Shown: positions 17,121 to 38,976 of the stretch, piece after piece
How positions within the stretch are numbered: the first letter of the stretch is position 1
Layout: each line of letters begins with the position of its first letter
Source: an uncultured Candidatus Saccharibacteria bacterium
GTDB taxonomy: Bacteria; Patescibacteriota; Doudnabacteria; UBA920
Length of the DNA stretch: 64,000 nt
Assembly (NCBI GenBank): GCA_964512925.1
Contig: CAZEKH010000002.1
Coordinates: forward strand, 122,505 to 186,504
Direction of reading: 5' to 3'
Notes under the pieces: generated by a model
Database searches by the model: none
What the model saw: the letters and a program-made list of their open reading frames with translations, nothing else
Told to the model about the DNA's origin: nothing
Program-made: the position numbers and the translations under genes

Positions 17121-17235
17121 CGCGTTGTCTAATATAAATTGAATATTGGGTACAGCAAATTTGAAAAGTTGAACCGCTCAGAATGGCTGATATAAAATCA
17201 AAGCCACAAATCGCTAGTCAAAATAGATTAAAACT

Positions 17236-20868
<3,633 letters not shown>

Positions 20869-23876: not shown

Positions 23877-24281
23877 ATGCAAAATTTCTCAAAAAAAATT
23901 GAGCTTTCTCCCAGACTTAAATTAAGCGTTGGCAGGAGCTATACGCAAAACCAAACATTTAAATATACTGCCATTTTCTGCCTGATTTTAGCCATAGGAC
24001 TTGCGGGCAATGCTATCCGCATAGTATTTAAAGCGGATCAAGACTCAAAACAGGCAAAAGAAAACATTATCCTTCCCCAAGTGCTAGGAGTAACTGACGA
24101 CAGGACTAAAAACACAGACAATCCTGAGGTTATTGAGTATAAAGTTCAAAAAGGAGATACTTTGTTTAACCTCAGTCAAAAATACAATATTTCCTGGGCA
24201 ACCTTAGCCACCTTAAATAACCTCAAGAGTCCTTTCACCCTTCAGCCAGGACAAACGATCAAAATTCCACGTTATTTTTAA
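23877..24281 (+). CDS. LysM-domain peptidoglycan-binding protein with an N-terminal TM helix
   Basis: YKVQKGDTLFNLSQKYNISWATLATLNNL...GQTIKIP is a LysM motif. Confidence 0.7.
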   Translation: MQNFSKKIELSPRLKLSVGRSYTQNQTFKYTAIFCLILAIGLAGNAIRIVFKADQDSKQAKENIILPQVLGVTDDRTKNTDNPEVIEYKVQKGDTLFNLSQKYNISWATLATLNNLKSPFTLQPGQTIKIPRYF

Positions 24282-24324: not shown

Positions 24325-25713
24325 TTAATAAGCTTCAACCTCTACAATTCTGGCTGTGCCTCCGACGCCGCTTGTTACATTTATTCTGATTTTTGAAGTT
24401 GTAACAAAAGGAAAAGTTATTTGCTTCCAAATTTTGTTATTACCTATTATATTTCCACCAGTAACCAGCTGCCAAGCGCTTCCATCCCAGTACTGGACCT
24501 GAAAATCAACAATGCCATAGGAGGAAAAAGTCATCGCCAAATCCGGATCAACCGGATTGGAAGCATAAGCATCCTGCAAAGTAATCACATCAATCTCATT
24601 GATATTTCTTAGGACCGGATTGGCGGCCGCGGTGTTATCCGTGAAATCAATTTGCAGCCAATCAGGCAAAACAAAGCTTGAATTCCAACCGTTGCCAGTA
24701 TCCCAATTTATACCTGTTCTATCACCGTTTATCGTTGCTGCCGGCGAAAATATACAGCAGGTATTGGAAGCCGACGCCCTGCCCCCGTTTGCCTGCAAGG
24801 CATAGTTTATGCGCGCTGAAGTTTCTCCTTCTTCCGGGATAACAACTCGAATTTTTCTCGTTACTTGGCTATTTCTGGCAGAAACATTTACCGCCGTCTC
24901 TCCTACCAAAGGGATACCTTTTGGACTTAAACCGGCAGTATCAGTAAAAGCTTCCAGCTGCACATATAAGGGATTTGTGCCGTTATAGTTATAAACTATA
25001 ATCTCCTGTTGCTTGGTAGGATCAAGAGTAAATTCACCATATAGTCCGGGGTCTAACGGGCTATTAACATAATACTTACCGTCGTTTCCATCCGGAGACC
25101 AATACTCAGTCGAAGAAACATCGCTACAGGCTGGAGTTAAATATGAAAGATTTGGATCGAACTCACAAACATAAACTGCCATTTTATCATTGTTGCCGCT
25201 GGGCAGATAAGTAAACTTTATTTTGCCGAAACCGCTTCCGGCAACGCTGCAAATCGGATCCGCGGATAAAGGATCTAAGGGGTCTGTAATAGGGCTCGGG
25301 CAAAGCAAATTAAAAAGCGGATAGCGGTTGGAGCTGGCGGCAAAGGAATTGGAACTTGCAGCAACTTTCACCTGATACACCTGCGGGGTTTCCTGGCTTT
25401 CTGTGCTGGATAAGTTAACAGCGCCCAGCAAATTGGTATAACTAAACGTACAACTGGAGCAAGTAGAGACTTTTCTTTTAATTTTAAACAAAGCTTCTTC
25501 AGTTACAGCATCCGCGCCGACAATAGCAGCTTCTGTTCTAAGTCCATCGCCCGAAACTTTTATTTCACCCAATAGAATCGCTGCAATGCTAAAACTGATG
25601 GCTAAAATAGCCGACAATATGATTATAGAAAGCAGTAAAGTCACTCCCTCTTGGGAAGACAAGGTAGATTTTTTATATTTGCTAAAAATCCAAGGTCTAT
25701 TGGGGTATATCAT
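24325..25713 (-). CDS. Large pilin-like protein with a C-terminal discoidin (F5/8 type C)-like lectin domain; candidate pilus tip adhesin
   Basis: Pilin-like hydrophobic N-terminus (EGVTLLLSIIILSAILAISF). A C-terminal ~130 aa with W/Y/G spacing (VDFQVQYWDGSAWQLV...IRINV) looks like a galactose-binding fold. Last gene of the minor-pilin block. Confidence 0.55.
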   Translation of the reverse strand: MIYPNRPWIFSKYKKSTLSSQEGVTLLLSIIILSAILAISFSIAAILLGEIKVSGDGLRTEAAIVGADAVTEEALFKIKRKVSTCSSCTFSYTNLLGAVNLSSTESQETPQVYQVKVAASSNSFAASSNRYPLFNLLCPSPITDPLDPLSADPICSVAGSGFGKIKFTYLPSGNNDKMAVYVCEFDPNLSYLTPACSDVSSTEYWSPDGNDGKYYVNSPLDPGLYGEFTLDPTKQQEIIVYNYNGTNPLYVQLEAFTDTAGLSPKGIPLVGETAVNVSARNSQVTRKIRVVIPEEGETSARINYALQANGGRASASNTCCIFSPAATINGDRTGINWDTGNGWNSSFVLPDWLQIDFTDNTAAANPVLRNINEIDVITLQDAYASNPVDPDLAMTFSSYGIVDFQVQYWDGSAWQLVTGGNIIGNNKIWKQITFPFVTTSKIRINVTSGVGGTARIVEVEAY

Positions 25714-26401
25714 ATTTATTTATACTGACTGAAGTCTGATAATAAATCTCTTTTGTTTCGCCTGTTGGCAAATTGACTGAAAAACGCATCAATATCTGGA
25801 CAAAGGGCTGTATTTTAGGGTAGTCGGAAGAATAACTGGAACAACCCGGAGGCTTTATTATATAAGGGTCACAAGTAGGCTTAACCGTGAAAGCAAGCTG
25901 GGTAATTTTAAAATTTGAAGGGTTTAAAATTTGGGGAGTATTACCTTCTTTTAAAACCACTAAAGTTCCGTTGGTATGAGTAAACCCGCTGCCCACATAA
26001 TTGCCATTTTGATCTCCGAAATATATGCATTGATGAAAGCCTTCATTGTCAATGATGCTTAGTCTGTTGTCTTTACCGTTCCCGCTGAGGCCATAATAGT
26101 TATCCCCCACATTGGCAATTTTGAGGCACGGACCAATATCTGAGCTTCTTGGCGCGTCGTGCGTACCATTCATCCCAAAATCAATCTCGCCATTTCGGAT
26201 ATTTTTTGCCAATGTTTCGGCAAAATTCCTCATTCCCTGAGAAGCTTGCCTTAAAGCTTCGCTTTTTCTGTTGATTTTTAAAACATAATTAAACAAGCTC
26301 ATCAACGAAGAAACCACAACAGCAAAAATGACCGTGGAAACTAAAATTTCCATTAAAGTAAATCCTGATCTATTTATTTTTTGCATTTTATACTGTTTCA
26401 T
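25697..26401 (-). CDS. Type IV minor pilin (prepilin-type N-terminus)
   Basis: GFTLMEILVSTVIF class III signal motif. Confidence 0.75.
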   Translation of the reverse strand: MKQYKMQKINRSGFTLMEILVSTVIFAVVVSSLMSLFNYVLKINRKSEALRQASQGMRNFAETLAKNIRNGEIDFGMNGTHDAPRSSDIGPCLKIANVGDNYYGLSGNGKDNRLSIIDNEGFHQCIYFGDQNGNYVGSGFTHTNGTLVVLKEGNTPQILNPSNFKITQLAFTVKPTCDPYIIKPPGCSSYSSDYPKIQPFVQILMRFSVNLPTGETKEIYYQTSVSINKYDIPQ

Positions 26402-26431: not shown

Positions 26432-27157
26432 TCAGTAATTTTTCCAATTAGTTAAATACTCCTGGAGCTCCACGCGACAAGAAGCTTTGGGAATTTTCCC
26501 TACTGACTCGTCCCAATCATCGAGTTTTGGACATTTTTTAGTTTCTGACCACCAAACTCGGGAAACAATTTTAAGCCTTTGAAAATTTGTTCTATTATAC
26601 GGCTGGGTAGTAGAATCCTCTGTAATTGTAATTTTTCTGTAAAAACCCGAATTGCCATTTGAAACTCCATTTATTACATCTGACATACTGTAATACCCTG
26701 TAAAGCTTGGACTGTCAATATCGGAACGAAAATCCAGACCCCATTTACCCCCGGTTGTGTTGTCATCTTTATATTGCCAATATTTATTTAGATTGGGATC
26801 TAAGATAAGCCTGGTACTTTTATTGGCTCCCGCCTGCCTGATATCATAACCCGCATTACCTGACGGATTCAACCATTCTGGGTAGCATTTGCCATTGTTA
26901 GAACCCGACAAAAAATTATAGCAATTGGTTGCTATAGTGGATTTAAGCCAGTTAGTATCGCGCATATTTTTAAATGCTTCAATACCTTCCCTAGCCAAAG
27001 CAGTAGCAACAATTTGTTGGGTGATGTTACTGGAAGCTGATAAGGCATATATAGCTAAGCCGGTCGCAGCGGTAATACCCATTGTTAAAATAAACACCGC
27101 GGCCAAGGTTTCAATGATAGTTTGTCCAGCCTGATTTTTTTTAGAAAAATACTTCAT
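26432..27157 (-). CDS. Type IV minor pilin
   Basis: GQTIIETLAAVFIL prepilin-like N-terminus. Confidence 0.7.
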   Translation of the reverse strand: MKYFSKKNQAGQTIIETLAAVFILTMGITAATGLAIYALSASSNITQQIVATALAREGIEAFKNMRDTNWLKSTIATNCYNFLSGSNNGKCYPEWLNPSGNAGYDIRQAGANKSTRLILDPNLNKYWQYKDDNTTGGKWGLDFRSDIDSPSFTGYYSMSDVINGVSNGNSGFYRKITITEDSTTQPYNRTNFQRLKIVSRVWWSETKKCPKLDDWDESVGKIPKASCRVELQEYLTNWKNY

Positions 27158-27160
27158 ATT

Positions 27161-27883
27161 TTACTGAAAAGTAATTGCTCCCGACAAACCGTTAACTGTA
27201 ATAGTTTTATATAAGCTACCGGATTTGTTGGTCAGCCTGATAGTCATCACCGAATCCCCGCTGGCCGCAGTAGCTGAACCGCCGCCAGTATCATTACCTA
27301 CGTATTGAGTGATCTGAGCATAGTCATCGGTATTGTTTGCAAATCCATTGCTCACACAATTTTCGTTATATATTATTTTTCCATATGGGACCTTGAAGGC
27401 TAAAAGGGCGCAAGAAGAAGGAGTTTGCGAGGTAAATCCGGCCGGCCTTTGAATGCAGACACCAGAACTTAAGCAGGCGACGCTGCTATAAGCGCCAATC
27501 CTGACATCTTGTGGCAACTTTATGGTTTCTATGGTAATCAGCCTCACCGGCGGACTGGTAACATTATACACAGCCTGAACAACATATTCTGTTGGATTAT
27601 TTAGATCAAATTTTAACAAATAATATTCTGCCGGGGTATTGTATGCAACATTTCTTGAATACAAAGCGCTGCTTTGTATCTCCCTGATTTTACTTACCAT
27701 CTGACTTTGAGCCAATTTTAAATTTCTTTGCGCTCTTTGACCGGCAATGTTTGCTGTCACCAAACCCATCACAATACCCATTATGAGCAAAACCATTGTT
27801 AGCTCCATTAAAGAAAACCCAGGATTTTTTCCAAATCCTGCCAGAGCTCGCTTTAACAATGCTTTTTTATATAATATTAACAA
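27161..27883 (-). CDS. Type IV minor pilin
   Basis: GFSLMELTMVLLIMGIV prepilin motif. Confidence 0.75.
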   Translation of the reverse strand: MLILYKKALLKRALAGFGKNPGFSLMELTMVLLIMGIVMGLVTANIAGQRAQRNLKLAQSQMVSKIREIQSSALYSRNVAYNTPAEYYLLKFDLNNPTEYVVQAVYNVTSPPVRLITIETIKLPQDVRIGAYSSVACLSSGVCIQRPAGFTSQTPSSCALLAFKVPYGKIIYNENCVSNGFANNTDDYAQITQYVGNDTGGGSATAASGDSVMTIRLTNKSGSLYKTITVNGLSGAITFQ

Positions 27884-27973: not shown

Positions 27974-28777
27974 CTAAAAACCCAAGAAATTTATGTACCA
28001 ATTAAATATTTGATCGCCGTAAAATAAGGAGATTAAAGCGCCCAGGCTTAAAAATACCCCGAAAGGCAATTTGCTCTGCAAAGTTTTTTTGCCAAAAAAT
28101 AAAAGGGGTAGGGAAACCAAAGTTCCCAAAAAAAACGACAAGAACCAGGCAACCCCGATTTTAGGCCAGGAGAGAGTCAATCCTAAAAAAAACGCGTACT
28201 TTACATCCCCAAAACCCATCCAACGTCCTTCCGAAAAATACCAAATAAAAAACAATGGTGCGGCAGCGGCAATTCCCGAAATCAGACCAAAAGCCAATTC
28301 CCCGGTTAAACTAAACCAATTGCCTGTAATAAAAACGTCTATTATCAAAAGCAAAAAGAGAATAAAAATTCCGGGGTACAATAAAACTTCATCTAAAATT
28401 AAAAAATGTTCAAAATCAATAATAGCGACAACTAAAAATACGCATAGCAATACTAAATATTTCACTAAAATTAAATACTCATAAGCTGTTTGAGGTGGAA
28501 AAAAATAATATGTTAGGCAAAATAACACTCCAGTCAAAAATTCCACTGTCGGATAACGGGGAGAAATTTTCTTTTTGCAATTTGCGCATTGTCCAAAAAG
28601 AAAAATATAGCTAAAAAGAGGAACCAACTGCCAGCCTTTCAAAGTCTGTTTGCAGCTCGGGCAATGTGATCTGCCTCTCAAAGTCTCGTCTTGAGGCATA
28701 CGTAAAATAACAACGTTTAAAAAACTTCCGAACAATAATCCTAAAATAAAATAAACCGCGTACAATATTGGCTCCAT
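27974..28777 (-). CDS. pilD: Prepilin peptidase (A24 family, with N-terminal Zn-binding CxxC pairs)
   Basis: CPSCKQ...CANCKK motif and a polytopic membrane domain with the FGDVK aspartate motif. Confidence 0.85.
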   Translation of the reverse strand: MEPILYAVYFILGLLFGSFLNVVILRMPQDETLRGRSHCPSCKQTLKGWQLVPLFSYIFLFGQCANCKKKISPRYPTVEFLTGVLFCLTYYFFPPQTAYEYLILVKYLVLLCVFLVVAIIDFEHFLILDEVLLYPGIFILFLLLIIDVFITGNWFSLTGELAFGLISGIAAAAPLFFIWYFSEGRWMGFGDVKYAFFLGLTLSWPKIGVAWFLSFFLGTLVSLPLLFFGKKTLQSKLPFGVFLSLGALISLFYGDQIFNWYINFLGF

Positions 28778-28791
28778 ATATATTTACAATT

Positions 28792-30807
28792 TTATTCAAA
28801 AATCAAAGTTTCCAGCACAGTTGGTATATAAACCTGCTTAAAATCCTTGGCTTGTTTAGAGCTTTGAGCTATATGCTTGACCAGCTCCATACCCGGATAT
28901 TTTTGAAAAGCTTGATTTAAAATTATCTTCATCTGTTTCTCCATCCCTTCCAGCTGGTAAATCCTTGCCAAAAGAAGCATTGAAGTTATAGAGTATGAAC
29001 TCAGCCTAACTCCGACTTTGGCATATTCCCTTGCTTCTTTGAGCCTTCCGTCTTCAGCGATATAAAAAGCCTGGTGAGTCCACCTCAGGCCATAGAATTT
29101 GTCTTTTTCCAAAGCAGAATTCATTTCTTCAATGGATTTTTTTAAAAATTCTCGCTGGCCGGTCCTGTCATAAGCTAAAAAATTCAGCTTTGAAGCCAAA
29201 TAATCAGTTTTAGCATCCTGAGGGATCAGCCGTTTAAACTTCGAAATTTTTTGTTCCAATACCTTTTCGTCAACGCCATCTCTTAGCATATCTGAAGCGA
29301 TTTTATAACTTTGCGACGCCAAATTATTTGGCGCAAGCCTGCTGGACCATAAAAGCAGTTTTGAAGAAGCCTGAAATTTTTGTTGAAAAAATTTGGTCCG
29401 CCCTTGCATAAACAAATGATCAGCCAAAGTATATGAAATTCCAACCATTAACAAACAAGCAGCTAAAAACCCTAATAACATTCTAGTTACCGGATTAAGA
29501 CCAATATTTGTTGGGAGGCATCTTTTTGAAAACATCACTGCCAGATAAAAACCAAGCAGTAAAAAACAAGCCGAGGATACCGGATTAAAAGCAGCTGAAA
29601 TATACCAAGCTAAAACCCCCAAACCAATTGATAGTAAATAAAATTTTTCCTCAATTGCCAGATTATAATCCTCTTCAGACAGAATTTTTTGCCTTAAACT
29701 CCTGACAACTAAAAATAAACCGGAAAAGCCAAAGGCTAAAAACCAGATTAGAAATGGCAATCCTAAAGTAGCGCCCATATTTAAAAACAAATTATGAGCA
29801 TCGTCAAAAACTCCGTTTTGGTCCGATAAAGCCGCGCTTCTTTGATTTTCAAAAAATAACTGGAAATTTCCAGGACCAACTCCGGTTAGCGGATGCTGGG
29901 TTATAGCCGTAAGGGCGATGTCCCACACAAAAAATCTTAAATTTATATTGGTTTCTGACAAATTTAAGCTTGCTTGCAGGCTTTGCGGCCGTGAAATTGA
30001 GTTAGTCTGCCAAAGCAAAGCCAAACTAAAAAACCCAAGAAATAGCGCGGCTAATATCTTTCTTAAGTTAAAACGAAAAATTGCCAATGATACGGGCGTC
30101 ACGACCGCCAAAAAAACCAAAGCCAGCCAGCCTGCCCTACTGGACAACAGACAAATTCCTGCAACAATAAAAAAACTGCCAAAAATATAATATACCCTTG
30201 CCTTCAAAGATTTGGCAGAAAAAATCAACGGCAAAGACAAAGGCAAAACCGCTGATAAAAACATTGTGGAAAAATTCGGATTGCCTAACAAACTGGGCGC
30301 GCGGGCAAACACTGTTGTATCCCCAACCCCGTTATAAAAACCTACACCATAAGACTGGAGTACGGCAATCAGGCCGACAACAGTAGCATCAAAAAAAAGT
30401 ACTTTATAAAATACACTTAATTTTTTATAAATATTTTGCGTGGAAAAAAAAATAATTGTGAAAACAAATACAAACCAAAAAATAAAACTATTATCCAGCC
30501 TTGGGTAACTGCCTAACAAGCTGTTAATCAAATTTTGAGAGTAAATTAAACTTGGCAATAAAAGCAATGCCCCTAAAAGACAAAACCCAATAAATTTTTT
30601 ATTTGATTGCAAAACTTTAGCCTTTATACTGACCACAATCGGCGCTGACAAACTTACAAACCAAACTGCCAGTTTTACTGTTTCAAATTTTTCATAGGAA
30701 AGTACACTGAAAGCCAATGGGACTAAAAGTAGCAAAAAAAACAAGGCTGAAAAAGTCTGGTCCTCATAAAAAGGCAGTCTTGGAATTTTTATTTGTTTAA
30801 ACATCAA
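28792..30807 (-). CDS. Polytopic membrane protein with an O-antigen ligase (Wzy_C) domain and C-terminal TPR repeats; candidate pilin O-oligosaccharyltransferase
   Basis: Twelve or more TM segments, a central periplasmic loop, and a TPR-like C-terminus. Sits between pilD and the major pilin gene. Confidence 0.55.
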   Translation of the reverse strand: MMFKQIKIPRLPFYEDQTFSALFFLLLLVPLAFSVLSYEKFETVKLAVWFVSLSAPIVVSIKAKVLQSNKKFIGFCLLGALLLLPSLIYSQNLINSLLGSYPRLDNSFIFWFVFVFTIIFFSTQNIYKKLSVFYKVLFFDATVVGLIAVLQSYGVGFYNGVGDTTVFARAPSLLGNPNFSTMFLSAVLPLSLPLIFSAKSLKARVYYIFGSFFIVAGICLLSSRAGWLALVFLAVVTPVSLAIFRFNLRKILAALFLGFFSLALLWQTNSISRPQSLQASLNLSETNINLRFFVWDIALTAITQHPLTGVGPGNFQLFFENQRSAALSDQNGVFDDAHNLFLNMGATLGLPFLIWFLAFGFSGLFLVVRSLRQKILSEEDYNLAIEEKFYLLSIGLGVLAWYISAAFNPVSSACFLLLGFYLAVMFSKRCLPTNIGLNPVTRMLLGFLAACLLMVGISYTLADHLFMQGRTKFFQQKFQASSKLLLWSSRLAPNNLASQSYKIASDMLRDGVDEKVLEQKISKFKRLIPQDAKTDYLASKLNFLAYDRTGQREFLKKSIEEMNSALEKDKFYGLRWTHQAFYIAEDGRLKEAREYAKVGVRLSSYSITSMLLLARIYQLEGMEKQMKIILNQAFQKYPGMELVKHIAQSSKQAKDFKQVYIPTVLETLIFE

Positions 30808-31196
30808 TACTTTATTGTGATTGTATTCTGACCTTTGGATGCAACATTAAAATCATCTGGCAGGCAAAAATTTATTGTAGCCATTTTTTTGTCTGCCCTG
30901 GTGTAATTTAAAGGCTCAGGACACTCTTTAATTTTAAAAGTATTCGGCTTGCCGGACAAATATTGGGAAATAACTTTTTCGTTGCCAAACTCATTAGCCG
31001 TGGGCAGGCGGTCGTTATCTTTATAAAAAAAATCCAGCGCCATTTTCATTTCCTGCGCCGCCATAAAAACCGCCTCGCTTTCTGCCTCTCTTCTTCCCGA
31101 GCTTGCCCCTAAAAAAATACTTATAAATAAAAAAGCAGCCACTCCGATGACTGTTATAAAAATTTTTATCTGATTGTTTGTCATTTGAAAATCCAT
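30804..31196 (-). CDS. Divergent pilin paralogue lacking the prepilin cleavage motif
   Basis: GRREAESEAVFMAAQEMKMALDFFYKDNDRLPT aligns with PilA SARAKSRDAKRLADVRQLASAMELIFNDAGAYPT. The N-terminus has a TM helix but no G-1/F+1/E+5. Confidence 0.5.
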   Translation of the reverse strand: MDFQMTNNQIKIFITVIGVAAFLFISIFLGASSGRREAESEAVFMAAQEMKMALDFFYKDNDRLPTANEFGNEKVISQYLSGKPNTFKIKECPEPLNYTRADKKMATINFCLPDDFNVASKGQNTITIKY

Positions 31197-31232: not shown

Positions 31233-31799
31233 TTACTGAATACCAGCAGGGGTTAAAGTGTGCACACCAGCAGCATATCCGCCAGTTGCGTCACCCAAAC
31301 AGAAAGTAATTGTATAGTTAGCGCCTACATCAGGAGCTGCGTACTGATAGCTGTTTGTAGTTGATGTACAAGCAGCGCCAGAACGGTTGTCAGGAGGAGT
31401 CGGAGCTGAAGGAATTAACCCGATATAAGTCGGGGTTAAAGTATAACCGGTTGCTCCGGTTGTAGCTGTTATAGACCTAAGTATACCACCAGCTGCGCTA
31501 CCCATAACATAAGCATCTCCAGTTGTGTCGCAAGCTCCGCTTGTACCACAAGTCGGATAAGCGCCGGCATCGTTGAAGATAAGTTCCATAGCTGAAGCCA
31601 GCTGTCTTACGTCAGCAAGCCTCTTGGCGTCCCTGGACTTGGCTCGAGCCGAGTTTAGGGCAAGTAAAACCACAGATGCCAAAAGACCAATAATGGCAAT
31701 AACCACTAAAAGTTCAATTAAAGTAAAACCTTTTATGTTTTTGTTTCTCAATTTTTTCACCCCCGTTCTTAAAATGTTTGAAAATATTGCTACTTTCAA
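31233..31799 (-). CDS. pilA: Type IVa major pilin
   Basis: KGFTLIELLVVIAIIGLLA canonical class III signal. The leader length is uncertain, since the first in-frame ATG gives 24 aa. Confidence 0.85.
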   Translation of the reverse strand: MKVAIFSNILRTGVKKLRNKNIKGFTLIELLVVIAIIGLLASVVLLALNSARAKSRDAKRLADVRQLASAMELIFNDAGAYPTCGTSGACDTTGDAYVMGSAAGGILRSITATTGATGYTLTPTYIGLIPSAPTPPDNRSGAACTSTTNSYQYAAPDVGANYTITFCLGDATGGYAAGVHTLTPAGIQ

Positions 31800-31868: not shown

Positions 31869-33074
31869 CTAACCAGCTGTGCTGGCTAAGTTATAAATTG
31901 GTAGCAGTACCCCTGCCACCAAAGCTCCCACTCCCAAACCTAAAATAATCATTATCAAAGGTTCCAATAGGGTGGTTAAAGTGGCAATCTTTGCATCTAC
32001 TTCTTTTTCATAAAAAGACGCGAGTTTATCCATAATATCGTCCAATTGAGCAGTCTGCTCGCCTACCCGCACCATTTGTGTGACAATATTAGGAAACTCC
32101 CTATGCCCGGACAATCCCTCGCTGATGCTTTTTCCAGCCGTAATCTTACTGACCGTATCGTTTAAAATTTCCCGATATATCACATTGTTGATAACATCTC
32201 CGACTATCTGCAAAGCTTTGATAATCGGGATGCCGCCGATAACTAAAGTGGATAAATTTCGGGAAAATCTGGCTAAATATATTTTTTCAAAAACATCTCC
32301 CAGTATAGGTAAATGAATTTTCATTTTATCCCAGTGGTACCTGCCAAATTCGGTAGACACAAAAAACTTTACTCCCATAGCGATGGCTATGAAAGCTAAA
32401 ATCACCATCCACCAAAACTTGTCAAAAAAATGCGTAAAAGAAATAAGTACTTTGGAGACCGTAGGAAGCTCCCCACCCTGCTCTTCTAAAACCGCGGTTA
32501 ATTTTGGCAAAACAAACTTAAACATCAAAACTCCGACAATGCCCAAAGCGCCCAAAACAAAAAGCGGATAAGTCAAGGCGCTTTTTACCTTTCCCCTTAA
32601 CTCATAGTCCTTTTCCAGCTGGGCTGCCAGATAATTCAGTGATTTATCCAAATTTCCCGATACTTCTCCTGAACGAACCAAGCTGGTATAAACATTGGTA
32701 AAAACCTTATCGTGCTTGGTCATTGCCAAGGATAAACTTTCACCATTTTCCACCGAAGAAATCAAATCTCTGGTAATAGTTAAAAGATACCGATTGCTAA
32801 TTTGTTCTTCTAAAATCCGCAAAGCCTGAATCAACGGCACACGGGCAGAAATCAAGGTTGCCAATTGTCTGGAAAATAAAACCACGTCCTTATTGCTGAC
32901 TGACTTGCCAAATGGATTTAGTTTTTGAAAGACATCTTCCTCTTTCTTGGCTAAAGAAAGAATCGTCAGCATATTTTCCGCCAAAAGCTGTTCAGCCCTG
33001 GCCTGGTCGGTTGCTACAACTATGCCTGACTTAATTTTTCCATCTTGAGTTTTTGCTTTATAAAGAAATTTCAT
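31869..33074 (-). CDS. pilC: Type IV pilus inner-membrane platform protein (GspF family)
   Basis: Two GspF repeats and three TM helices. 401 aa. Confidence 0.9.
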   Translation of the reverse strand: MKFLYKAKTQDGKIKSGIVVATDQARAEQLLAENMLTILSLAKKEEDVFQKLNPFGKSVSNKDVVLFSRQLATLISARVPLIQALRILEEQISNRYLLTITRDLISSVENGESLSLAMTKHDKVFTNVYTSLVRSGEVSGNLDKSLNYLAAQLEKDYELRGKVKSALTYPLFVLGALGIVGVLMFKFVLPKLTAVLEEQGGELPTVSKVLISFTHFFDKFWWMVILAFIAIAMGVKFFVSTEFGRYHWDKMKIHLPILGDVFEKIYLARFSRNLSTLVIGGIPIIKALQIVGDVINNVIYREILNDTVSKITAGKSISEGLSGHREFPNIVTQMVRVGEQTAQLDDIMDKLASFYEKEVDAKIATLTTLLEPLIMIILGLGVGALVAGVLLPIYNLASTAG

Positions 33075-33104
33075 AAACTTTACTGATTACTGATTTACTG
33101 ACAA

Positions 33105-34175
33105 CTAACTTACTAAAGATAGAAAATAATCATTGTCCAAAACGTGATTTTGAGCGACTTCAAAATCCACCTGACCCTGCTTGACCAGACCAGCCAAAGT
33201 TTTATCCAAAGGCACCATACCTTCTTCCAAAGAAGTATGTATGATATTGGCAATTTCATAAATTTTATTGTCTCTGATCACATTTCTAACCGCGTGATTG
33301 GCAACCATTATTTCATATGCCGGAACCCGCCCGCCGCCGATTTTAGGTAGAAGCCTTAAAGAAATAACTCCAGTTAACACAGAAGCCAGCTGTCCGCGCA
33401 CCTGCTGCTGCTGGCCCGATGGAAACACGTCAACAATACGGTCAATGCTTTGAGCCGCGTCATTGGTATGCAAAGTGGCAAAAACCAAGTGTCCGGTTTC
33501 AGCTATGGTCAAAGCTGCGGACACAGATTCAAAGTCGCGCATCTCGCCAAGCAAAACCACGTTAATATCTTCACGAAGCGCGGCTTTTAAAGCTCCCTCA
33601 AAAGTCGGCGTATCCAGGTATAATTCGCGCTGTGAAATAATTGAGCGATTCGGAGTAAACATATATTCCACCGGATCTTCAATAGTCAAAATATGCTCCG
33701 CGCGAGTATTGTTTATTTCATTGATCATCGCAGCTAAAGCGGTTGATTTACCGTGCCCCGTCGGTCCGACTACCAAAACCAACCCCTGTCGCCTCTCAAT
33801 AAATTTTCGGAAAATCGGGGGCAGGTTCAATTCTTCGATGGTTTTAATATGATTCGGGATGGTTCTTAGCGCCACGCCCAGCACGCCCTTTTGGCGGTAA
33901 GCATTTACGCGAAAACGGATGTTGTCCTTAAAAGCGTAGGAAAAATCAATATGCATCTGCTTTTCAAACAAGCCTTTTTGCACATCGGTCAAAAGAATGT
34001 TTAGCAAATCCAAAATCGTATCATTGCTCAATACCTGATAACTATCCAAACGAATCAATGCCGTATCCACGCGAATAATAGGCGGCTCTCCGACCATTAA
34101 ATGTAAATCCGAAGCATCTCTTTCTAAAACCAATGACAACAATTTATTGAGTTCTAACTCGCTGGCTTTATACAT
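33105..34175 (-). CDS. pilT: Twitching-motility retraction ATPase
   Basis: Walker A GPTGHGKST. About 356 aa, which is PilT size rather than PilB size. Confidence 0.85.
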   Translation of the reverse strand: MYKASELELNKLLSLVLERDASDLHLMVGEPPIIRVDTALIRLDSYQVLSNDTILDLLNILLTDVQKGLFEKQMHIDFSYAFKDNIRFRVNAYRQKGVLGVALRTIPNHIKTIEELNLPPIFRKFIERRQGLVLVVGPTGHGKSTALAAMINEINNTRAEHILTIEDPVEYMFTPNRSIISQRELYLDTPTFEGALKAALREDINVVLLGEMRDFESVSAALTIAETGHLVFATLHTNDAAQSIDRIVDVFPSGQQQQVRGQLASVLTGVISLRLLPKIGGGRVPAYEIMVANHAVRNVIRDNKIYEIANIIHTSLEEGMVPLDKTLAGLVKQGQVDFEVAQNHVLDNDYFLSLVS

Positions 34176-34193
34176 AGTATAAAAATTTTAAAA

Positions 34194-34625
34194 TTAAATA
34201 TTTAATATTTGGCAAGCTAACACCACTACATCTTCAGGCCGGCTTAAACGTTTATCCAAATGCCCACAAACCCCGACTGACATAATTTTTTTTAAGGTAG
34301 TATGACTTGCGTCAAAACCCAAAGTCATAATTTTTAACCGAGGAAAATTAGTTCTCAGATTTAACAAAAAATCTTCAGCTTCTTCGGGCTGCTTGGAAAA
34401 AAAATCCAAGCTTAATACTGCTAAAAACGGCTGTTTTTCCTTTATTGCCGGATGAATCGCATCCAGATTCGAGCAGGCATGGATTTGCATTTTTTTTTCG
34501 GCAAAATGCCTCTCGTATATGCCAAGCAAACTTGAAGACGGCTCTGCCACCAAAATCACTCCGGAAAAACCAGGGTTGGATATCAACTCGGAAATATCAA
34601 ATTTTTGTTTAAATATATACGCCAT
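34194..34625 (-). CDS. Stand-alone, probably degenerate CheY-like receiver domain protein
   Basis: Spacing of a receiver fold (ILVAEP..., LAVLSLD, IMTLG, K) but without the acidic DD pair. Sits between pilB and pilT. Confidence 0.45.
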   Translation of the reverse strand: MAYIFKQKFDISELISNPGFSGVILVAEPSSSLLGIYERHFAEKKMQIHACSNLDAIHPAIKEKQPFLAVLSLDFFSKQPEEAEDFLLNLRTNFPRLKIMTLGFDASHTTLKKIMSVGVCGHLDKRLSRPEDVVVLACQILNI

Positions 34626-34626
34626 A

Positions 34627-36378
34627 TTATTCCGTAGTTACTCTCATCACTTCGTCCAGAGTGGTCTCGCCCCGAATAATTTTTATTAAACCGTCCTGCT
34701 TCATTGTTATCATCCCCAAAGAAGCCGCGTGCTCGTACATTTTTCTTGAAGAAGATTTTGACAGCACTAATTCCTGTAGTTCAGCGTCAACTGGCAAAAC
34801 CTCATAAATGCCCATACGACCTGCATAACCTGAATTGCCGCATTTTTCACAGCCATGTCCTTTAAAAGTCTTTAGAGTCGCCATATCCAGTCCTTCCAAA
34901 TACTCGTCCGGAACCCCTTTGAGCCCGTCTCGGATTTCTTTTTCGATTCCAGGCAAAATCGGCACTTCCCCTCTGCAGTTAGAACAGATTTTTCTTACCA
35001 ATCTTTGAGCCATCACCACATTGATTGAGGAAGCGAGTAAAAAAGGTTCAATGCCCATATCAATCATTCTCGGCATCGCCCCAATGGAGTTATTGGTATG
35101 CAAAGTGGAAAATACCAAATGCCCGGTCAAGGCAGCGTGCACTGCCAGCTCAGCTGTTTCTTTGTCTCGAATTTCACCCACCATCACCACATTGGGATCT
35201 TGCCTAAGTATGCTCCGAAGACCGGCCGCAAAAGTCAGACCGATTTCCGGATTAATCTGGCTTTGATTTATCCCTTCAATAAAATATTCCACGGGGTCTT
35301 CCAAAGTGATAATGTTGACAGTCGGGGAATTTAAAATGGATAAAATTGCATAAAGCGTGGTAGATTTTCCGCTACCGGTCGGTCCGGTAATTAGAAAAAT
35401 ACCGTGAGTTTTTTTAATGTTTTCTTTTATCCATACCAAAGCGCGCCCGCGTATGCCCAGCTGTTCCAAAGTCGGAACCGAACCGGTCTTATCCAAAATA
35501 CGCATCACAATTTTTTCCCCGTAAATCAAAGGTAAAATGGAAACACGCAAATCAACGGATTTTTTTCCTACATCCATATGAAATCTTCCGTCTTGCGGCA
35601 ACCTGGATTCGTCAATTTTTAAATTGGATAAAATTTTAATTCTTGTAATAATCGCCGCGTGGACGTTTCTAGGCAACATCAAAGATGTATGCAAAATTCC
35701 ATCTATGCGGTATCTGACTCGCACATCTTTTTCCGAAGGTTCAATGTGTATATCTGAAGCATTACCCTCAATGGCATTAGTTAAAATAACTTCCACAATC
35801 TTTATAATCGGTGCTTCTTCAATGACCTGGGGAATATTGGATTTTTCAGCTTCCTGAGCAGACTTTAAACCCCCGCTTTCTTTGGTCTGAATATCTTTTA
35901 GAGCATCGCCCACTACTTTTTTTAGGTTCTTTTTCTTTCCGGAGGCAACTTCAACACCGCTCTCTGAGGCTAAATAAAGCTGAATTTGAAGATTTTGTTT
36001 TTGGCCCAAAAATTCCAAGGCTTCCAGAGCGGACAAATTTCCAGGGTTGGTTATGGCAACCTTTAAAATGCGGTCGCGATTTTCAAACGGAATAAAATTA
36101 TAAAAATTCACCGACTCCGGAGGAATGAGATTTAAAACAGCAGGAGGAATCGTAATTTGTTTTAAATCCACATAAGGTATGTTAAAAAAGGCGGCTTTAG
36201 CTTTGGCTAAATCCTCTTCTTCGATTATTTTTCGCGCAAGAAGCAGCTGGCTCACATTTTGTCCGGTTTCTTTTTCCAGCTTCTCCAGCTGTAAAATCGT
36301 ATCCTCGCTGACAAAACCATTGCTGACTAAAAATTGCCCGAAAGTTTGCGCTACGTTAGTTTTAGCAGCGGTTTCCAT
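34627..36378 (-). CDS. pilB: Type IV pilus assembly ATPase (GspE family) with an N-terminal GSPII_E_N domain and tetracysteine motif
   Basis: Walker A ITGPTGSGKST and CSNC...CEKC. Confidence 0.9.
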   Translation of the reverse strand: METAAKTNVAQTFGQFLVSNGFVSEDTILQLEKLEKETGQNVSQLLLARKIIEEEDLAKAKAAFFNIPYVDLKQITIPPAVLNLIPPESVNFYNFIPFENRDRILKVAITNPGNLSALEALEFLGQKQNLQIQLYLASESGVEVASGKKKNLKKVVGDALKDIQTKESGGLKSAQEAEKSNIPQVIEEAPIIKIVEVILTNAIEGNASDIHIEPSEKDVRVRYRIDGILHTSLMLPRNVHAAIITRIKILSNLKIDESRLPQDGRFHMDVGKKSVDLRVSILPLIYGEKIVMRILDKTGSVPTLEQLGIRGRALVWIKENIKKTHGIFLITGPTGSGKSTTLYAILSILNSPTVNIITLEDPVEYFIEGINQSQINPEIGLTFAAGLRSILRQDPNVVMVGEIRDKETAELAVHAALTGHLVFSTLHTNNSIGAMPRMIDMGIEPFLLASSINVVMAQRLVRKICSNCRGEVPILPGIEKEIRDGLKGVPDEYLEGLDMATLKTFKGHGCEKCGNSGYAGRMGIYEVLPVDAELQELVLSKSSSRKMYEHAASLGMITMKQDGLIKIIRGETTLDEVMRVTTE

Positions 36379-36386
36379 AAGCTTTT

Positions 36387-36683
36387 TTATTTAATCTCGT
36401 CTTCAAACGGGATCACCAAATCCTGCTCAGCAGTTCCCAAATCATTATCTAAGTCAATTTTAGGAAAATTGACTTGTTTAAAATTAAAAGAAGAATTTTT
36501 AAAAGCTTTATCTATATCAAAAGACGCTCCTTGGGGCAAAATTTCCTCATTTTGTACATTTGCCCCTTCCGTTGCCAGCTCTGGAGCGCTGCCGCCCTGA
36601 AAAAGACCCTTATACAAAACTATGCCGCTGATCAAAAAACATACGGCAATAACTAGAATTTGAATGATATTTTTTTTCTGCAT
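36387..36683 (-). CDS. Small membrane-anchored protein in the pilus operon (PilP-like position)
   Basis: One N-terminal TM helix and 98 aa. The position between pilO and pilB is the only support. Confidence 0.4.
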   Translation of the reverse strand: MQKKNIIQILVIAVCFLISGIVLYKGLFQGGSAPELATEGANVQNEEILPQGASFDIDKAFKNSSFNFKQVNFPKIDLDNDLGTAEQDLVIPFEDEIK

Positions 36684-36695
36684 AACATTTTGTTG

Positions 36696-37325
36696 TTAGG
36701 GGGCGAAATAATAAGTTTTAAAATTAATCCTAAGCCCTAACTGCCCTTTCCCGGAAGGTGTCATATCCATCCCTGTGATATCCATCAGCCTGCCGGAGTT
36801 TTCTATTTTCTGAAGGAATGATTTGAGTTGAAAAAAATCTCCATAAGCATTGACATTGCAAGATAAAGTTTTCAAAGTTCTCTTGGCATAAAACGGATCA
36901 GTGATAATTTTTTGATCATTGCCATACACCTGCTCTTCTTTGGCAGTAACCGCCACATCGCCTACAGTCACACCTGACTCATTTGCCAAGTTTTGTACTA
37001 AAATTTGAACTTTTGTCCGACGACTGTCTAAAGGCAAGGCTTCGTCTAACATTGCCAACTCAGCGGGAAATTTGCCCATCTTGGCAATCAATCCTTTTAA
37101 AGAAGCCGTTTGCGCCTGGATAGTCCCGCGTTCCTTGACTAAAACTGCCAATTCCGCGCGCTTTTCAGCCAATTCCGCGCGCTTAGGCTTGATCATAAAC
37201 CAAAAAAACAACGCAATAAAAATCAAAACCGCCAGAATTTGAATATTCGTGGATTTAAAAGATCTAACTTCCACGGAAGTTGCAGATTCTTTAGCCGAAC
37301 TTTTTGGCAGGTTAAAATTCATCAT
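36696..37325 (-). CDS. pilO: Type IV pilus assembly protein PilO-like
   Basis: TM helix, coiled coil (AELAEKRAELAVL) and a periplasmic domain. Gene order pilM-N-O. Confidence 0.6.
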   Translation of the reverse strand: MMNFNLPKSSAKESATSVEVRSFKSTNIQILAVLIFIALFFWFMIKPKRAELAEKRAELAVLVKERGTIQAQTASLKGLIAKMGKFPAELAMLDEALPLDSRRTKVQILVQNLANESGVTVGDVAVTAKEEQVYGNDQKIITDPFYAKRTLKTLSCNVNAYGDFFQLKSFLQKIENSGRLMDITGMDMTPSGKGQLGLRINFKTYYFAP

Positions 37326-37333
37326 ATAAAAAT

Positions 37334-37921
37334 TTATTTGCTTGGCTGGGCAACAAGCCCCTCTTTTCTCAAAATCTGGGAATTAAAATTCATTCTAAAA
37401 TTTACATTTAAATTGCTCTGTCCCAACTTTTCAATTTTATTGATAGCCCCGATTTTAACATTTGAAAAGCTTCGCATAAACTCTAAAGTGTCAAAAAGCT
37501 GGAGCAATTTGTCCAATTCCTGGTTATCTTTCAAATTCACGCTCAAAGCCAAACTGCCATCCTCAGCAACCCGGATATACAAATAATGCGACCCTTTAAT
37601 GCTGAGGTCTGCGATAGCCTTAAAAAAATTGGAAAAATATGGATGCGAAGCGCTGAGATTTTGATAGGCTTTCAGCTGTCCCTGCCTGGATAAAAATTCT
37701 TTCCGCTGGGCCATATTTAAAGCCAGCTTTTTTTCCTGTGCCACCGCGGCTTTGGTTTTCGGAATTTCATTTGTTACTTTTTTTGTATCTAAAAATATCC
37801 AGAGATAATAAGCCACAAACAGCAAGGCAATAAAAGAAACTATTTTTAGTCCGGAGCCCCGGATTTTTAAAAATAAGTCTTCAGTCGAGCTTTTTTGTTT
37901 TAATAAATTGATTTGTGCCAC
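37334..37921 (-). CDS. pilN: Type IV pilus assembly protein PilN-like
   Basis: MAQINLL N-terminus and a single TM helix. Directly follows pilM. Confidence 0.65.
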   Translation of the reverse strand: MAQINLLKQKSSTEDLFLKIRGSGLKIVSFIALLFVAYYLWIFLDTKKVTNEIPKTKAAVAQEKKLALNMAQRKEFLSRQGQLKAYQNLSASHPYFSNFFKAIADLSIKGSHYLYIRVAEDGSLALSVNLKDNQELDKLLQLFDTLEFMRSFSNVKIGAINKIEKLGQSNLNVNFRMNFNSQILRKEGLVAQPSK

Positions 37922-37947
37922 AAAATTTTGATTTCTTTATTTTGAAA

Positions 37948-38976
37948 TTATTCTGCTCTTAAAGCGAGGCCGATTGCCACAGGTAAATTGCGGGAATAAC
38001 GTTTTAAAACCTGCTCGGCTGAGACTGAAAACGCCACATTTTTCAACGGATTGCCCAATTCCACTGGCATTTTCAGATCCGCAAAAAAATCAATAATGCC
38101 TGGCATATTGCTTCCGCCGCCAGCCAAAATTACCTTATCTAAGCGGATATCCTGCGATACATAAATCGTTAACAGCTGCTTTACCTCATTTTTCACAATA
38201 TTTAACACCGGCTTAACCGCTTCGGGGATAAAAGAAGGGCCATTGATGCCAAAATCTTTCTTAAACTGTTCGGCTCGGCTATGATTTATTCCTAAAGTTT
38301 CTGCAATTTTTGAAGTAATGGTTTCTCCTCCCACATTCAGATTGCGACTCAATTTTAAAACTCCATTTTCAATAATATTCAAACCAGTACTCTTGGCGCC
38401 TATATCTATTATAACACAATTTATCTTTTCTCCCCCGATCAGACTGCGGATTAAAGCCAAAGCTTCAATCTCAGCCGCCTCAGGATGCAAACCAGATATT
38501 TCAAAAAGCTTGCTATAATTCTCTTTAATCTGCTTAGGCACGGCAATCAGCAGAATTTTTTGGCTGGATGTTTGCGCATTTGTATCTGTAACAGTCCAAG
38601 ACAAGTCTATTTCATCCAATGCCAATGGCACGTATTTTTTGGCTTCATACTCCACAGCCCCGTCAAGCTCTTTATCGTTCATCATCGGCAGTTCAATCAC
38701 TGAAGAGAAAACCGCGCTATTGGGAAAACTAATCACAGATCTTTGAGCGCTGATACCCGCTTTTTTTATAAGGGATTTGATCAACTCTGCCATCCTGGCT
38801 AAAGATTCCGGATCGTTTTTTCCGCTTAAAGCTTCCGGAATATTGACTATCCCATAACTCTCCAAAACCCTCTCTCCCGAAGACTTCTGTCCCACCTGGG
38901 CGAGTTTAATGCTGGAGGTTCCGATATCAACCCCTAAAACAGAGCTATGTTTTTTAAACAAACCGGCTAAAAACAT
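37948..38976 (-). CDS. pilM: Type IV pilus assembly protein PilM (actin-like ATPase)
   Basis: VLGVDIGTSSIKLAQV phosphate-1 motif of FtsA/PilM. Confidence 0.85.
   Translation of the reverse strand: MFLAGLFKKHSSVLGVDIGTSSIKLAQVGQKSSGERVLESYGIVNIPEALSGKNDPESLARMAELIKSLIKKAGISAQRSVISFPNSAVFSSVIELPMMNDKELDGAVEYEAKKYVPLALDEIDLSWTVTDTNAQTSSQKILLIAVPKQIKENYSKLFEISGLHPEAAEIEALALIRSLIGGEKINCVIIDIGAKSTGLNIIENGVLKLSRNLNVGGETITSKIAETLGINHSRAEQFKKDFGINGPSFIPEAVKPVLNIVKNEVKQLLTIYVSQDIRLDKVILAGGGSNMPGIIDFFADLKMPVELGNPLKNVAFSVSAEQVLKRYSRNLPVAIGLALRAE

Follow-up and report, generated by a model that had tools for sequence, protein, structure and literature searches.

In a 64,000-nucleotide stretch of the genome of an uncultured, ultrasmall bacterium of the Patescibacteria (GenBank contig CAZEKH010000002.1, positions 122,505 to 186,504; hereafter the window), the gene at 24325-25713 on the minus strand encodes a 462-amino-acid minor pilin of modular build, which by profile comparison is of the PilX type and which carries a C-terminal domain predicted to have a discoidin fold. 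By analogy with better-studied type 4 filaments, we consider it reasonably probable that this protein is a PilX/GspK-like cap pilin that would present its lectin module on the distal end of the pilus and act there as a tip adhesin. The gene closes a row of four minor-pilin genes within a type IVa-like pilus locus that is complete and equipped for retraction. Its open reading frame (ORF) agrees exactly in its coordinates with the stretch in which an earlier reading of the DNA (the original prediction) had seen a pilin-like protein fused to a discoidin-like domain, and the identical protein is seen on two independent metagenome contigs with unchanged neighbours. Patescibacteria are mostly uncultivated episymbionts whose host recognition is largely unknown and for which type IV pili are the best-conserved surface machine. 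An exchangeable lectin-type cap pilin at a fixed gene position would be a candidate attachment determinant that can be read directly from sequence.

The N-terminal region and its PilX-type relatives

The N-terminal ~280 aa of the protein (the N-module) define a family. When 1.84 billion cluster representatives were searched exhaustively with HMMER, 193 of them matched at E<=1e-30, and relaxing the cutoff to E<=1e-3 raised the number to 906. Family carriers among named genome records are all metagenome-assembled genomes of Patescibacteria, labelled Doudnabacteria, 'Saccharibacteria' or Patescibacteria group. The protein starts with a polar and basic leader peptide of 23 residues (MIYPNRPWIFSKYKKSTLSSQEG; 25645-25713, minus strand) that ends in Gly23, and in an AlphaFold2 model built from a 95-sequence alignment (mean predicted local distance difference test score, pLDDT, 85.9) this leader is disordered and a hydrophobic helix follows. 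This prepilin-like layout bears out the pilin-like N-terminus of the original prediction. Sequence considerations make it probable that PilD cleaves after Gly23, at the putative prepilin-peptidase site G↓VTLLL, and the mature protein would then be 439 aa long, in agreement with the mature part of more than 400 aa proposed earlier. Gly23 is kept in at least 90% of 72 family members, and the motif G↓[VI][TS]L[LM] is readable in 188 of the 213 collected proteins that have the full N-module. Position +1 is Val or Ile. At position +5, where the major pilin and all three minor pilins encoded upstream have Glu5, the mature protein has Leu, and this holds for 180 of the 188 readable members, none of which has Glu. 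Consistent with this departure from the standard prepilin pattern, the protein gives no match to the N_methyl models PF07963 and TIGR02532 at E up to 0.1. The region that follows the leader, a PilX_N-type alpha-1 segment (residues 24-82; 25468-25644, minus strand), consists of the hydrophobic helix and a subsequent amphipathic helix, modelled as residues 22-53 and 56-79 with pLDDT values of about 85-98 and separated by a two-residue break at S54-G55. Residues E50, S54, D56, E61 and E72, invariant in a first 19-sequence alignment, are invariant or at least 90% conserved among the 72 members.

Several comparisons connect this segment to PilX. A profile built from residues 1-84 brings up about 90 short proteins of Patescibacteria (140-163 aa), four of which are labelled 'PilX' by the Joint Genome Institute (JGI) and one of which carries Pfam PilX_N; with the bridging sequence P0037 removed from the profile, 75 matches remain at E<1e-3 (Z=10^6). 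Pfam PilX_N is matched by 31 of 83 short Patescibacteria PilX-type proteins (best E=8.4e-6) and, directly, by one extended member of the family (E=1.9e-5). Aligning the family with the short PilX-type proteins in hhalign gives a probability of 97.2% (E=3e-11) over residues 17-82, with the Gly(-1) positions aligned. We do not rely on scans of single N-modules (72 members), which yielded sporadic and non-significant matches to PilX_N (2), GspK (2) and tapirin (7). By these sequence profiles, the protein is a PilX/PilK/GspK-type fourth core minor pilin. It resembles GspK, PilX of P. aeruginosa and PilK of Neisseria in being encoded by the fourth gene of its block, the position whose product, on present models of type 4 filaments, caps the tip complex (PMC10191384), in having Gly at -1, a non-aromatic residue at +1 and no Glu5, and in being larger than its partners; transitive profile evidence adds homology of its N-terminal region to PilX_N. 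It differs from GspK in that the family matches GspK models only in two very weak cases (E=0.21) and has no GspK-type alpha-domain. Neither GspK nor PilX has an appended lectin module, and the fold of the protein's body was not recovered among solved structures.

The bridging protein P0037 (318 aa; JGI sample 3300050046, on a 65-kb contig) is of interest in its own right, as it joins a short PilX_N-type protein to the best-matching discoidin domain. In another lineage, its gene sits after PilD and three minor pilins and before LigA. With the same slot and the same fold, P0037 indicates that a lectin fold has been grafted onto two different cap-pilin scaffolds.

The gene position is conserved too strictly for a chance arrangement. 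Among the fetched loci, 36 extend over the upstream gene, and in every one of them the family gene stands directly after the third minor pilin, within the order PilC, major pilin, small ORF, Wzy_C, PilD, three G....E prepilins and family gene; a LysM gene on the opposite strand and then LigA come next in nearly all loci whose sequence reaches that far. The slot is constant whatever the add-on, be it LamG (locus L003), discoidin (locus L004 and the window) or, in most loci, none. In the window, three prepilin-type genes and PilD lie directly upstream on the same strand, which confirms the place at the end of the minor-pilin block given by the original prediction, and the start of the gene overlaps the end of the preceding minor-pilin gene by 17 nt. 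The further proposal that the gene occupies the seat usually taken by tip adhesins such as PilY1/PilC did not hold: the protein is itself the PilX-equivalent fourth minor pilin, and the locus contains no PilY1-like gene, the next genes being LysM and LigA. The protein does share with PilY1/PilC a proposed role as an adhesin that the minor-pilin complex presents at the tip, as well as a modular N-terminal region, and F5/8 type C domains occur in two listed PilY1 architectures (PMC8179133 Dataset S2). PilY1, however, does not belong to the pilins, and its defining feature is a C-terminal beta-propeller, whereas the protein described here has neither a propeller in its model nor a PilY1 Pfam match. 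The original prediction was therefore right that the two are unrelated, and a PilY1-like identity can be ruled out.

Between the helices and the C-terminal domain lies a part that the original prediction had left out of its description, a family-specific beta-sandwich body of ~210 aa (residues 83-296; 24826-25467, minus strand) that ends in the conserved motif 'R.IR..IP'. The model is beta-rich over residues 99-293, with pLDDT mostly above 85 and two loose loops. A Cys183-Cys196 pair is conserved in the body and the protein has an even number of Cys residues, both of which fit an extracytoplasmic location. Foldseek comparison of the N-module with the PDB gave no significant match (best E=4.9e-3, TM score 0.2 or less), and an N-module profile search of PDB sequences returned nothing meaningful (an antibody light chain at E=0.66). 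A linker (residues 297-310; 24784-24825, minus strand) follows, which is modelled with low confidence (pLDDT below 50 for residues 297-299) and coincides with the junction at which stand-alone family members end. The predicted template modelling score, pTM, is 0.58 for the full-length protein vs 0.70 for residues 1-296 alone, as would be expected if a flexible linker joined two rigid modules.

The discoidin module and the add-on repertoire

The C-terminal module (residues 311-462; 24328-24783, minus strand), a putative lectin, is in the structural model a CBM32 / F5-8 type C (discoidin) domain of the eight-stranded jelly-roll type. Residues 311-461 are modelled as a beta-sandwich with pLDDT above 90, and Foldseek matches this part to CBM32 / F5-8 type C structures in the PDB with E-values of 5e-8 to 1e-6, a probability of 1.00, target-normalised template modelling (TM) scores of 0.74-0.84 and root-mean-square deviations of 2.2-3 Å. 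The matched structures include 4a41 and 2v72 (galactose), 2j1r and 3lek (fucose / Lewis antigens) and 4zxe (chitosan). The galactose-binding-like fold proposed for the C-terminus thus stands, and its predicted size does not: the domain comprises about 150 aa and not ~130. At the sequence level, the domain alone stays below the Pfam threshold (PF22633, E=0.005, 17.9 bits vs a cutoff of 27.8), the whole protein has no match in Pfam or NCBIfam, and its N-terminal 300 aa give noise only. A phmmer/profile search of PDB sequences with the C-terminus found only a weak beta-galactosidase CBM-like chain (E=0.0026). Domains in other proteins that are 46-61% identical to the discoidin domain do carry PF00754/PF22633.

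A first homology search had already split in two, with matches either to the C-terminal third only or to the N-terminal 60% only, the former being diverse subtilases, RHS proteins and metalloproteases with discoidin repeats. The same division is visible within the family. Many homologues stop within three residues of 'R.IR..IP', the end of the N-module, and others run on through a Ser/Gly linker into another domain; among the 213 collected proteins, 116 stand alone (about 55%) and 95 are extended. With an N-module that occurs both alone and extended, a sharp boundary, a low-confidence linker and a CBM32 add-on, the layout is that of a modular pilin in the sense of Raynaud et al. 2021 (PMC8179133), in which a short linker joins a pilin module to a domain whose use is not confined to pili. 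A Pfam scan of 93 extended members assigns LamG to 28, F5/8 type C (discoidin, PF00754) to 16, DUF2341 to 14, SpaA-like domains to five, malectin to four and PA14 to three, with NHL/propeller, cohesin, Big_1 and others in one or two members each; a weak CBM35-like module is also among the add-ons, and at least nine add-on types are present in the first 31 extended members alone.

The discoidin domain described here is up to 61% identical to domains of unrelated multi-domain proteins vs 34-53% identical to those of other family members, and in a crude neighbour-joining tree, which has no support values and in which the outside proteins are not taxonomically placed, the family's discoidin modules are scattered over several places. 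Such sequence relationships suggest repeated acquisition or replacement of discoidin modules. Taken further, the fourth minor-pilin slot of Patescibacteria might be a cassette site at which the C-terminal ligand-binding module (LamG, discoidin, malectin, PA14, SpaA-like, propeller and at least one uncharacterised type) has been exchanged time and again, some modules apparently coming from unrelated proteins. We put this forward as a tentative reading that is rather less probable than its opposite. If true, this gene would largely set the host or surface to which an ultrasmall episymbiont can attach, and would provide a readable genomic determinant of host range in bacteria of the candidate phyla radiation. 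The family is well suited to the study of module swapping at the pilus tip in Patescibacteria, and the add-on domains of about 150 aa are small recombinant targets for glycan-binding tests.

Two observations on the add-ons stand somewhat apart. A recurrent C-terminal add-on of ~175 aa with the signature '...TVWVEDS...HRAYWG...' is found in P0032, P0041, P0063, P0068, P0079, P0132, P0135 and P0027, and is as common as discoidin in the first sample of extended members. The add-on of P0032, the sole representative scanned separately, has no Pfam match, and this type may be an undescribed ligand-binding domain. In one Patescibacteria genome, the cap-pilin slot holds two tandem family genes (L011:5378-6742 and L011:6866-8956), which encode a 454-aa protein with an add-on that has no Pfam match and a 696-aa protein with a SpaA-like prealbumin-fold domain.

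Modular, lectin-bearing minor pilins have been published before, and the family extends this known principle. In Streptococcus sanguinis, the modular pilins PilB and PilC bear a vWA module and a concanavalin-A-like lectin module, respectively; the lectin module mediates glycan binding, and the modular pilins are thought to be exposed at the tip (PMC8179133, PMC9934059). A database survey lists over 1,200 modular pilins; many come from candidate phyla, LamG and PA14 are among the add-ons, and a single 'IPR012902 - IPR000421' protein, i.e. a pilin with an F5/8 type C domain, is included (PMC8179133). The S. sanguinis proteins have a canonical class III signal, seen as IPR012902, and a small pilin module. 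The present family, in contrast, has no IPR012902 motif, no Glu5, a ~210-aa body and the fourth position of an H-I-J-K-like set. Since the survey required IPR012902 and the family does not match the corresponding models, it was most likely missed there, and surveys of modular pilins that use the standard prepilin motif will have missed it as well.

Proposed tip display, ligand and competing readings

The closest described parallel comes from the Saccharibacterium TM7x (Nanosynbacter lyticus), for which a preprint (Grossman et al. 2024, PMC11623550) reports PilX1 and PilX2 as the largest minor pilins, with lectin-like C-terminal domains. Deletion of pilX2 lowers host binding, and binding is inhibited by rhamnose (PMC11623550); within the pair, phenotypic data exist for PilX2 only. 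In both cases the protein is the largest minor pilin of a Patescibacteria type IV pilus, has a non-canonical signal and carries an extra beta-rich, lectin-like domain, with a proposed role as a tip adhesin for glycans of the host wall. The add-ons differ, PilX1 having an L-type-lectin-like jelly roll and PilX2 a seven-bladed propeller, as opposed to the CBM32/discoidin domain found here. Locus one of TM7x has the same machinery set (PilB, PilT, PilC, PilMNO, PilD and five pilins), and on the basis of this shared content PilX1 is likely the positional counterpart of our protein. Tapirins, cellulose-binding proteins of Caldicellulosiruptor, are a looser analogue, being carbohydrate binders whose genes adjoin a pilus locus. 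In seven of 72 family members, the N-terminal ~75 residues (17-92 in the numbering of the protein described here) weakly match the NCBIfam tapirin model (best E=0.011), and tapirins may have been derived from PilX-type pilins. Their C-terminal domain, on the other hand, is described as structurally unique, and the E-values are weak.

How might the protein work? It would be inserted N-in/C-out into the membrane through its hydrophobic helix, after which PilD, encoded three genes upstream, would probably remove the 23-residue leader behind Gly23. Together with the three upstream minor pilins, which have Glu5, it could form a priming complex from which polymerisation of the major pilin starts. 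In type 4 filaments, assembly runs from tip to base, with the priming complex ending up at the tip, and the tip complex is capped by a subunit that lacks Glu5 (PMC10191384). Without Glu5, nothing would have to dock above the protein, which could accordingly form the cap at the distal tip; the PilX-equivalent identity, combined with this model of a Glu5-less cap, makes for a stronger argument for tip location. The CBM32/discoidin module, on its short flexible linker, would be shown at the tip and bind a ligand there, most likely a glycan on the envelope of a host cell or on another surface, and PilT-driven retraction would pull on the attachment. For insertion, cleavage, priming and capping, this scheme draws on homology, gene order and the general type 4 filament model, and for ligand binding on the fold, together with the fact that carbohydrate-binding-type domains prevail among the family's add-ons. 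In this way we infer PilD cleavage, tip incorporation and glycan binding of the protein.

Some of the data weigh against such a tip adhesin. The protein on its own matches no pilin model (N_methyl, PilX_N or GspK), and its link to PilX is transitive and spans residues 17-82 only. The body has no significant match to any solved pilin, with GspK and PilX not recovered by Foldseek from the PDB. SignalP predicted no PilD site for the Saccharibacteria proteins PilX1 and PilX2 (PMC11623550), which makes the cleavage of such proteins uncertain. Finally, discoidin domains also bind lipids and proteins.

Three other explanations were weighed. In the first, the protein is only a priming or anchoring subunit, and its lectin acts at the cell surface on the cell's own wall polysaccharide or on glycosylated pilins, so as to position or regulate the machine and not as a distal adhesin. 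The conserved presence in the locus of a Wzy_C-type gene, possibly a pilin glycosyltransferase, and of a gene for a LysM wall-binding protein as the divergent neighbour would agree with this. So would the fact that the gene is always present and over half of the family has no add-on, which implies that the core job of the N-module is not adhesion via an add-on. Against this, the add-ons differ strongly by lineage, which suits variable external ligands better than a conserved self-structure, and tip-to-base assembly puts the priming complex at the tip (PMC10191384). We therefore regard a purely anchoring role as unlikely.

A second explanation accepts the tip adhesin and gives it a protein or lipid as ligand, as in eukaryotic discoidin domains. 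With similar E-values, the Foldseek matches also include neuropilin b1b2 and further discoidins that bind proteins or lipids, and the closest sequence relatives of the domain are in proteases and RHS-type proteins, not in glycosidases. The best single-domain structure matches, however, are bacterial CBM32 sugar-binding modules (with the TM scores of 0.74-0.84 given above), and the LamG, malectin, PA14 and weak CBM35-like add-ons of the family are typical carbohydrate binders. A ligand other than a carbohydrate hence seems improbable to us, to about the same degree as the anchoring role. The third explanation, a signal-anchored surface or secreted lectin that merely adjoins pilus genes, could appeal to the missing canonical prepilin motif (no Glu5, no N_methyl match) and to the absence of a structural match to solved pilins, but is very hard to reconcile with the invariant place after three prepilins in all 36 informative loci, the start overlap with the upstream minor-pilin gene (which suggests translational coupling), the Gly conserved at -1 and the homology of residues 17-82 to PilX_N-type proteins.

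The surrounding pilus locus and other features of the window

The pilus genes upstream of the cap-pilin gene are all on the minus strand. Directly adjacent is the gene for the third minor pilin (25697-26401; 234 aa, G↓FTLME, with Glu5), which matches N_methyl and, weakly, the N-terminal parts of GspJ, ComGE and PilV-type models. The genes for the second (26432-27157; 241 aa, G↓QTIIE) and first minor pilins (27161-27883; 240 aa, G↓FSLME) come next, both with N_methyl matches and with PilV-type and GspH-type N-terminal matches, respectively. They are preceded by the prepilin peptidase gene pilD (27974-28777; A24_N_bact E=2e-31, Peptidase_A24 E=3.7e-9). The probable major pilin is encoded at 31233-31799 (188 aa, G↓FTLIE). 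Beyond it, the machinery block from PilC to PilM extends over 31869-38976 and comprises the PilC platform (31869-33074), a PilT-like ATPase (33105-34175), a 143-aa ORF without Pfam match (34194-34625), the PilB ATPase (34627-36378), PilO (36696-37325), a 195-aa ORF in the PilN position to which no family was assigned (37334-37921) and PilM (37948-38976). Since the locus has PilT and PilM/PilO, a type II secretion pseudopilus can be ruled out. On the other side of the cap-pilin gene, the divergently transcribed gene for a small LysM-domain protein (23877-24281, plus strand) is followed by that for the NAD-dependent DNA ligase LigA.

Between the major pilin and PilD, the locus encodes a 671-aa membrane protein with a Wzy_C (O-antigen-ligase-like) domain (28792-30807, minus strand). 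It is conserved inside the pilus locus, with a homologue in most related loci whose sequence extends to this point (L003-L039). The pilin O-glycosyltransferases PglL/TfpO are Wzy_C-type proteins, and the protein in the window may likewise glycosylate pilins. The preprint on the Saccharibacteria pili mentions no Wzy_C-type gene (PMC11623550). Next to it (30804-31196, minus strand) lies an ORF of 130 aa that has no family match and starts with a hydrophobic helix in its N-terminal part; in most related loci with enough upstream sequence, a counterpart of 125-151 aa directly follows the major pilin gene. In the P0037 locus, the position corresponding to the 143-aa ORF at 34194-34625 is occupied by a gene for a 134-aa response regulator.

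Outside the pilus locus, the window contains an oversized 23S rRNA gene. The match at 17224-20855 (minus strand) measures 3,632 nt vs 2,925 nt for the Rfam model and holds about 700 nt of inserted sequence, with no Rfam intron family found at E<=0.01 and no ORF of at least 80 aa noticed within it on the rRNA strand.

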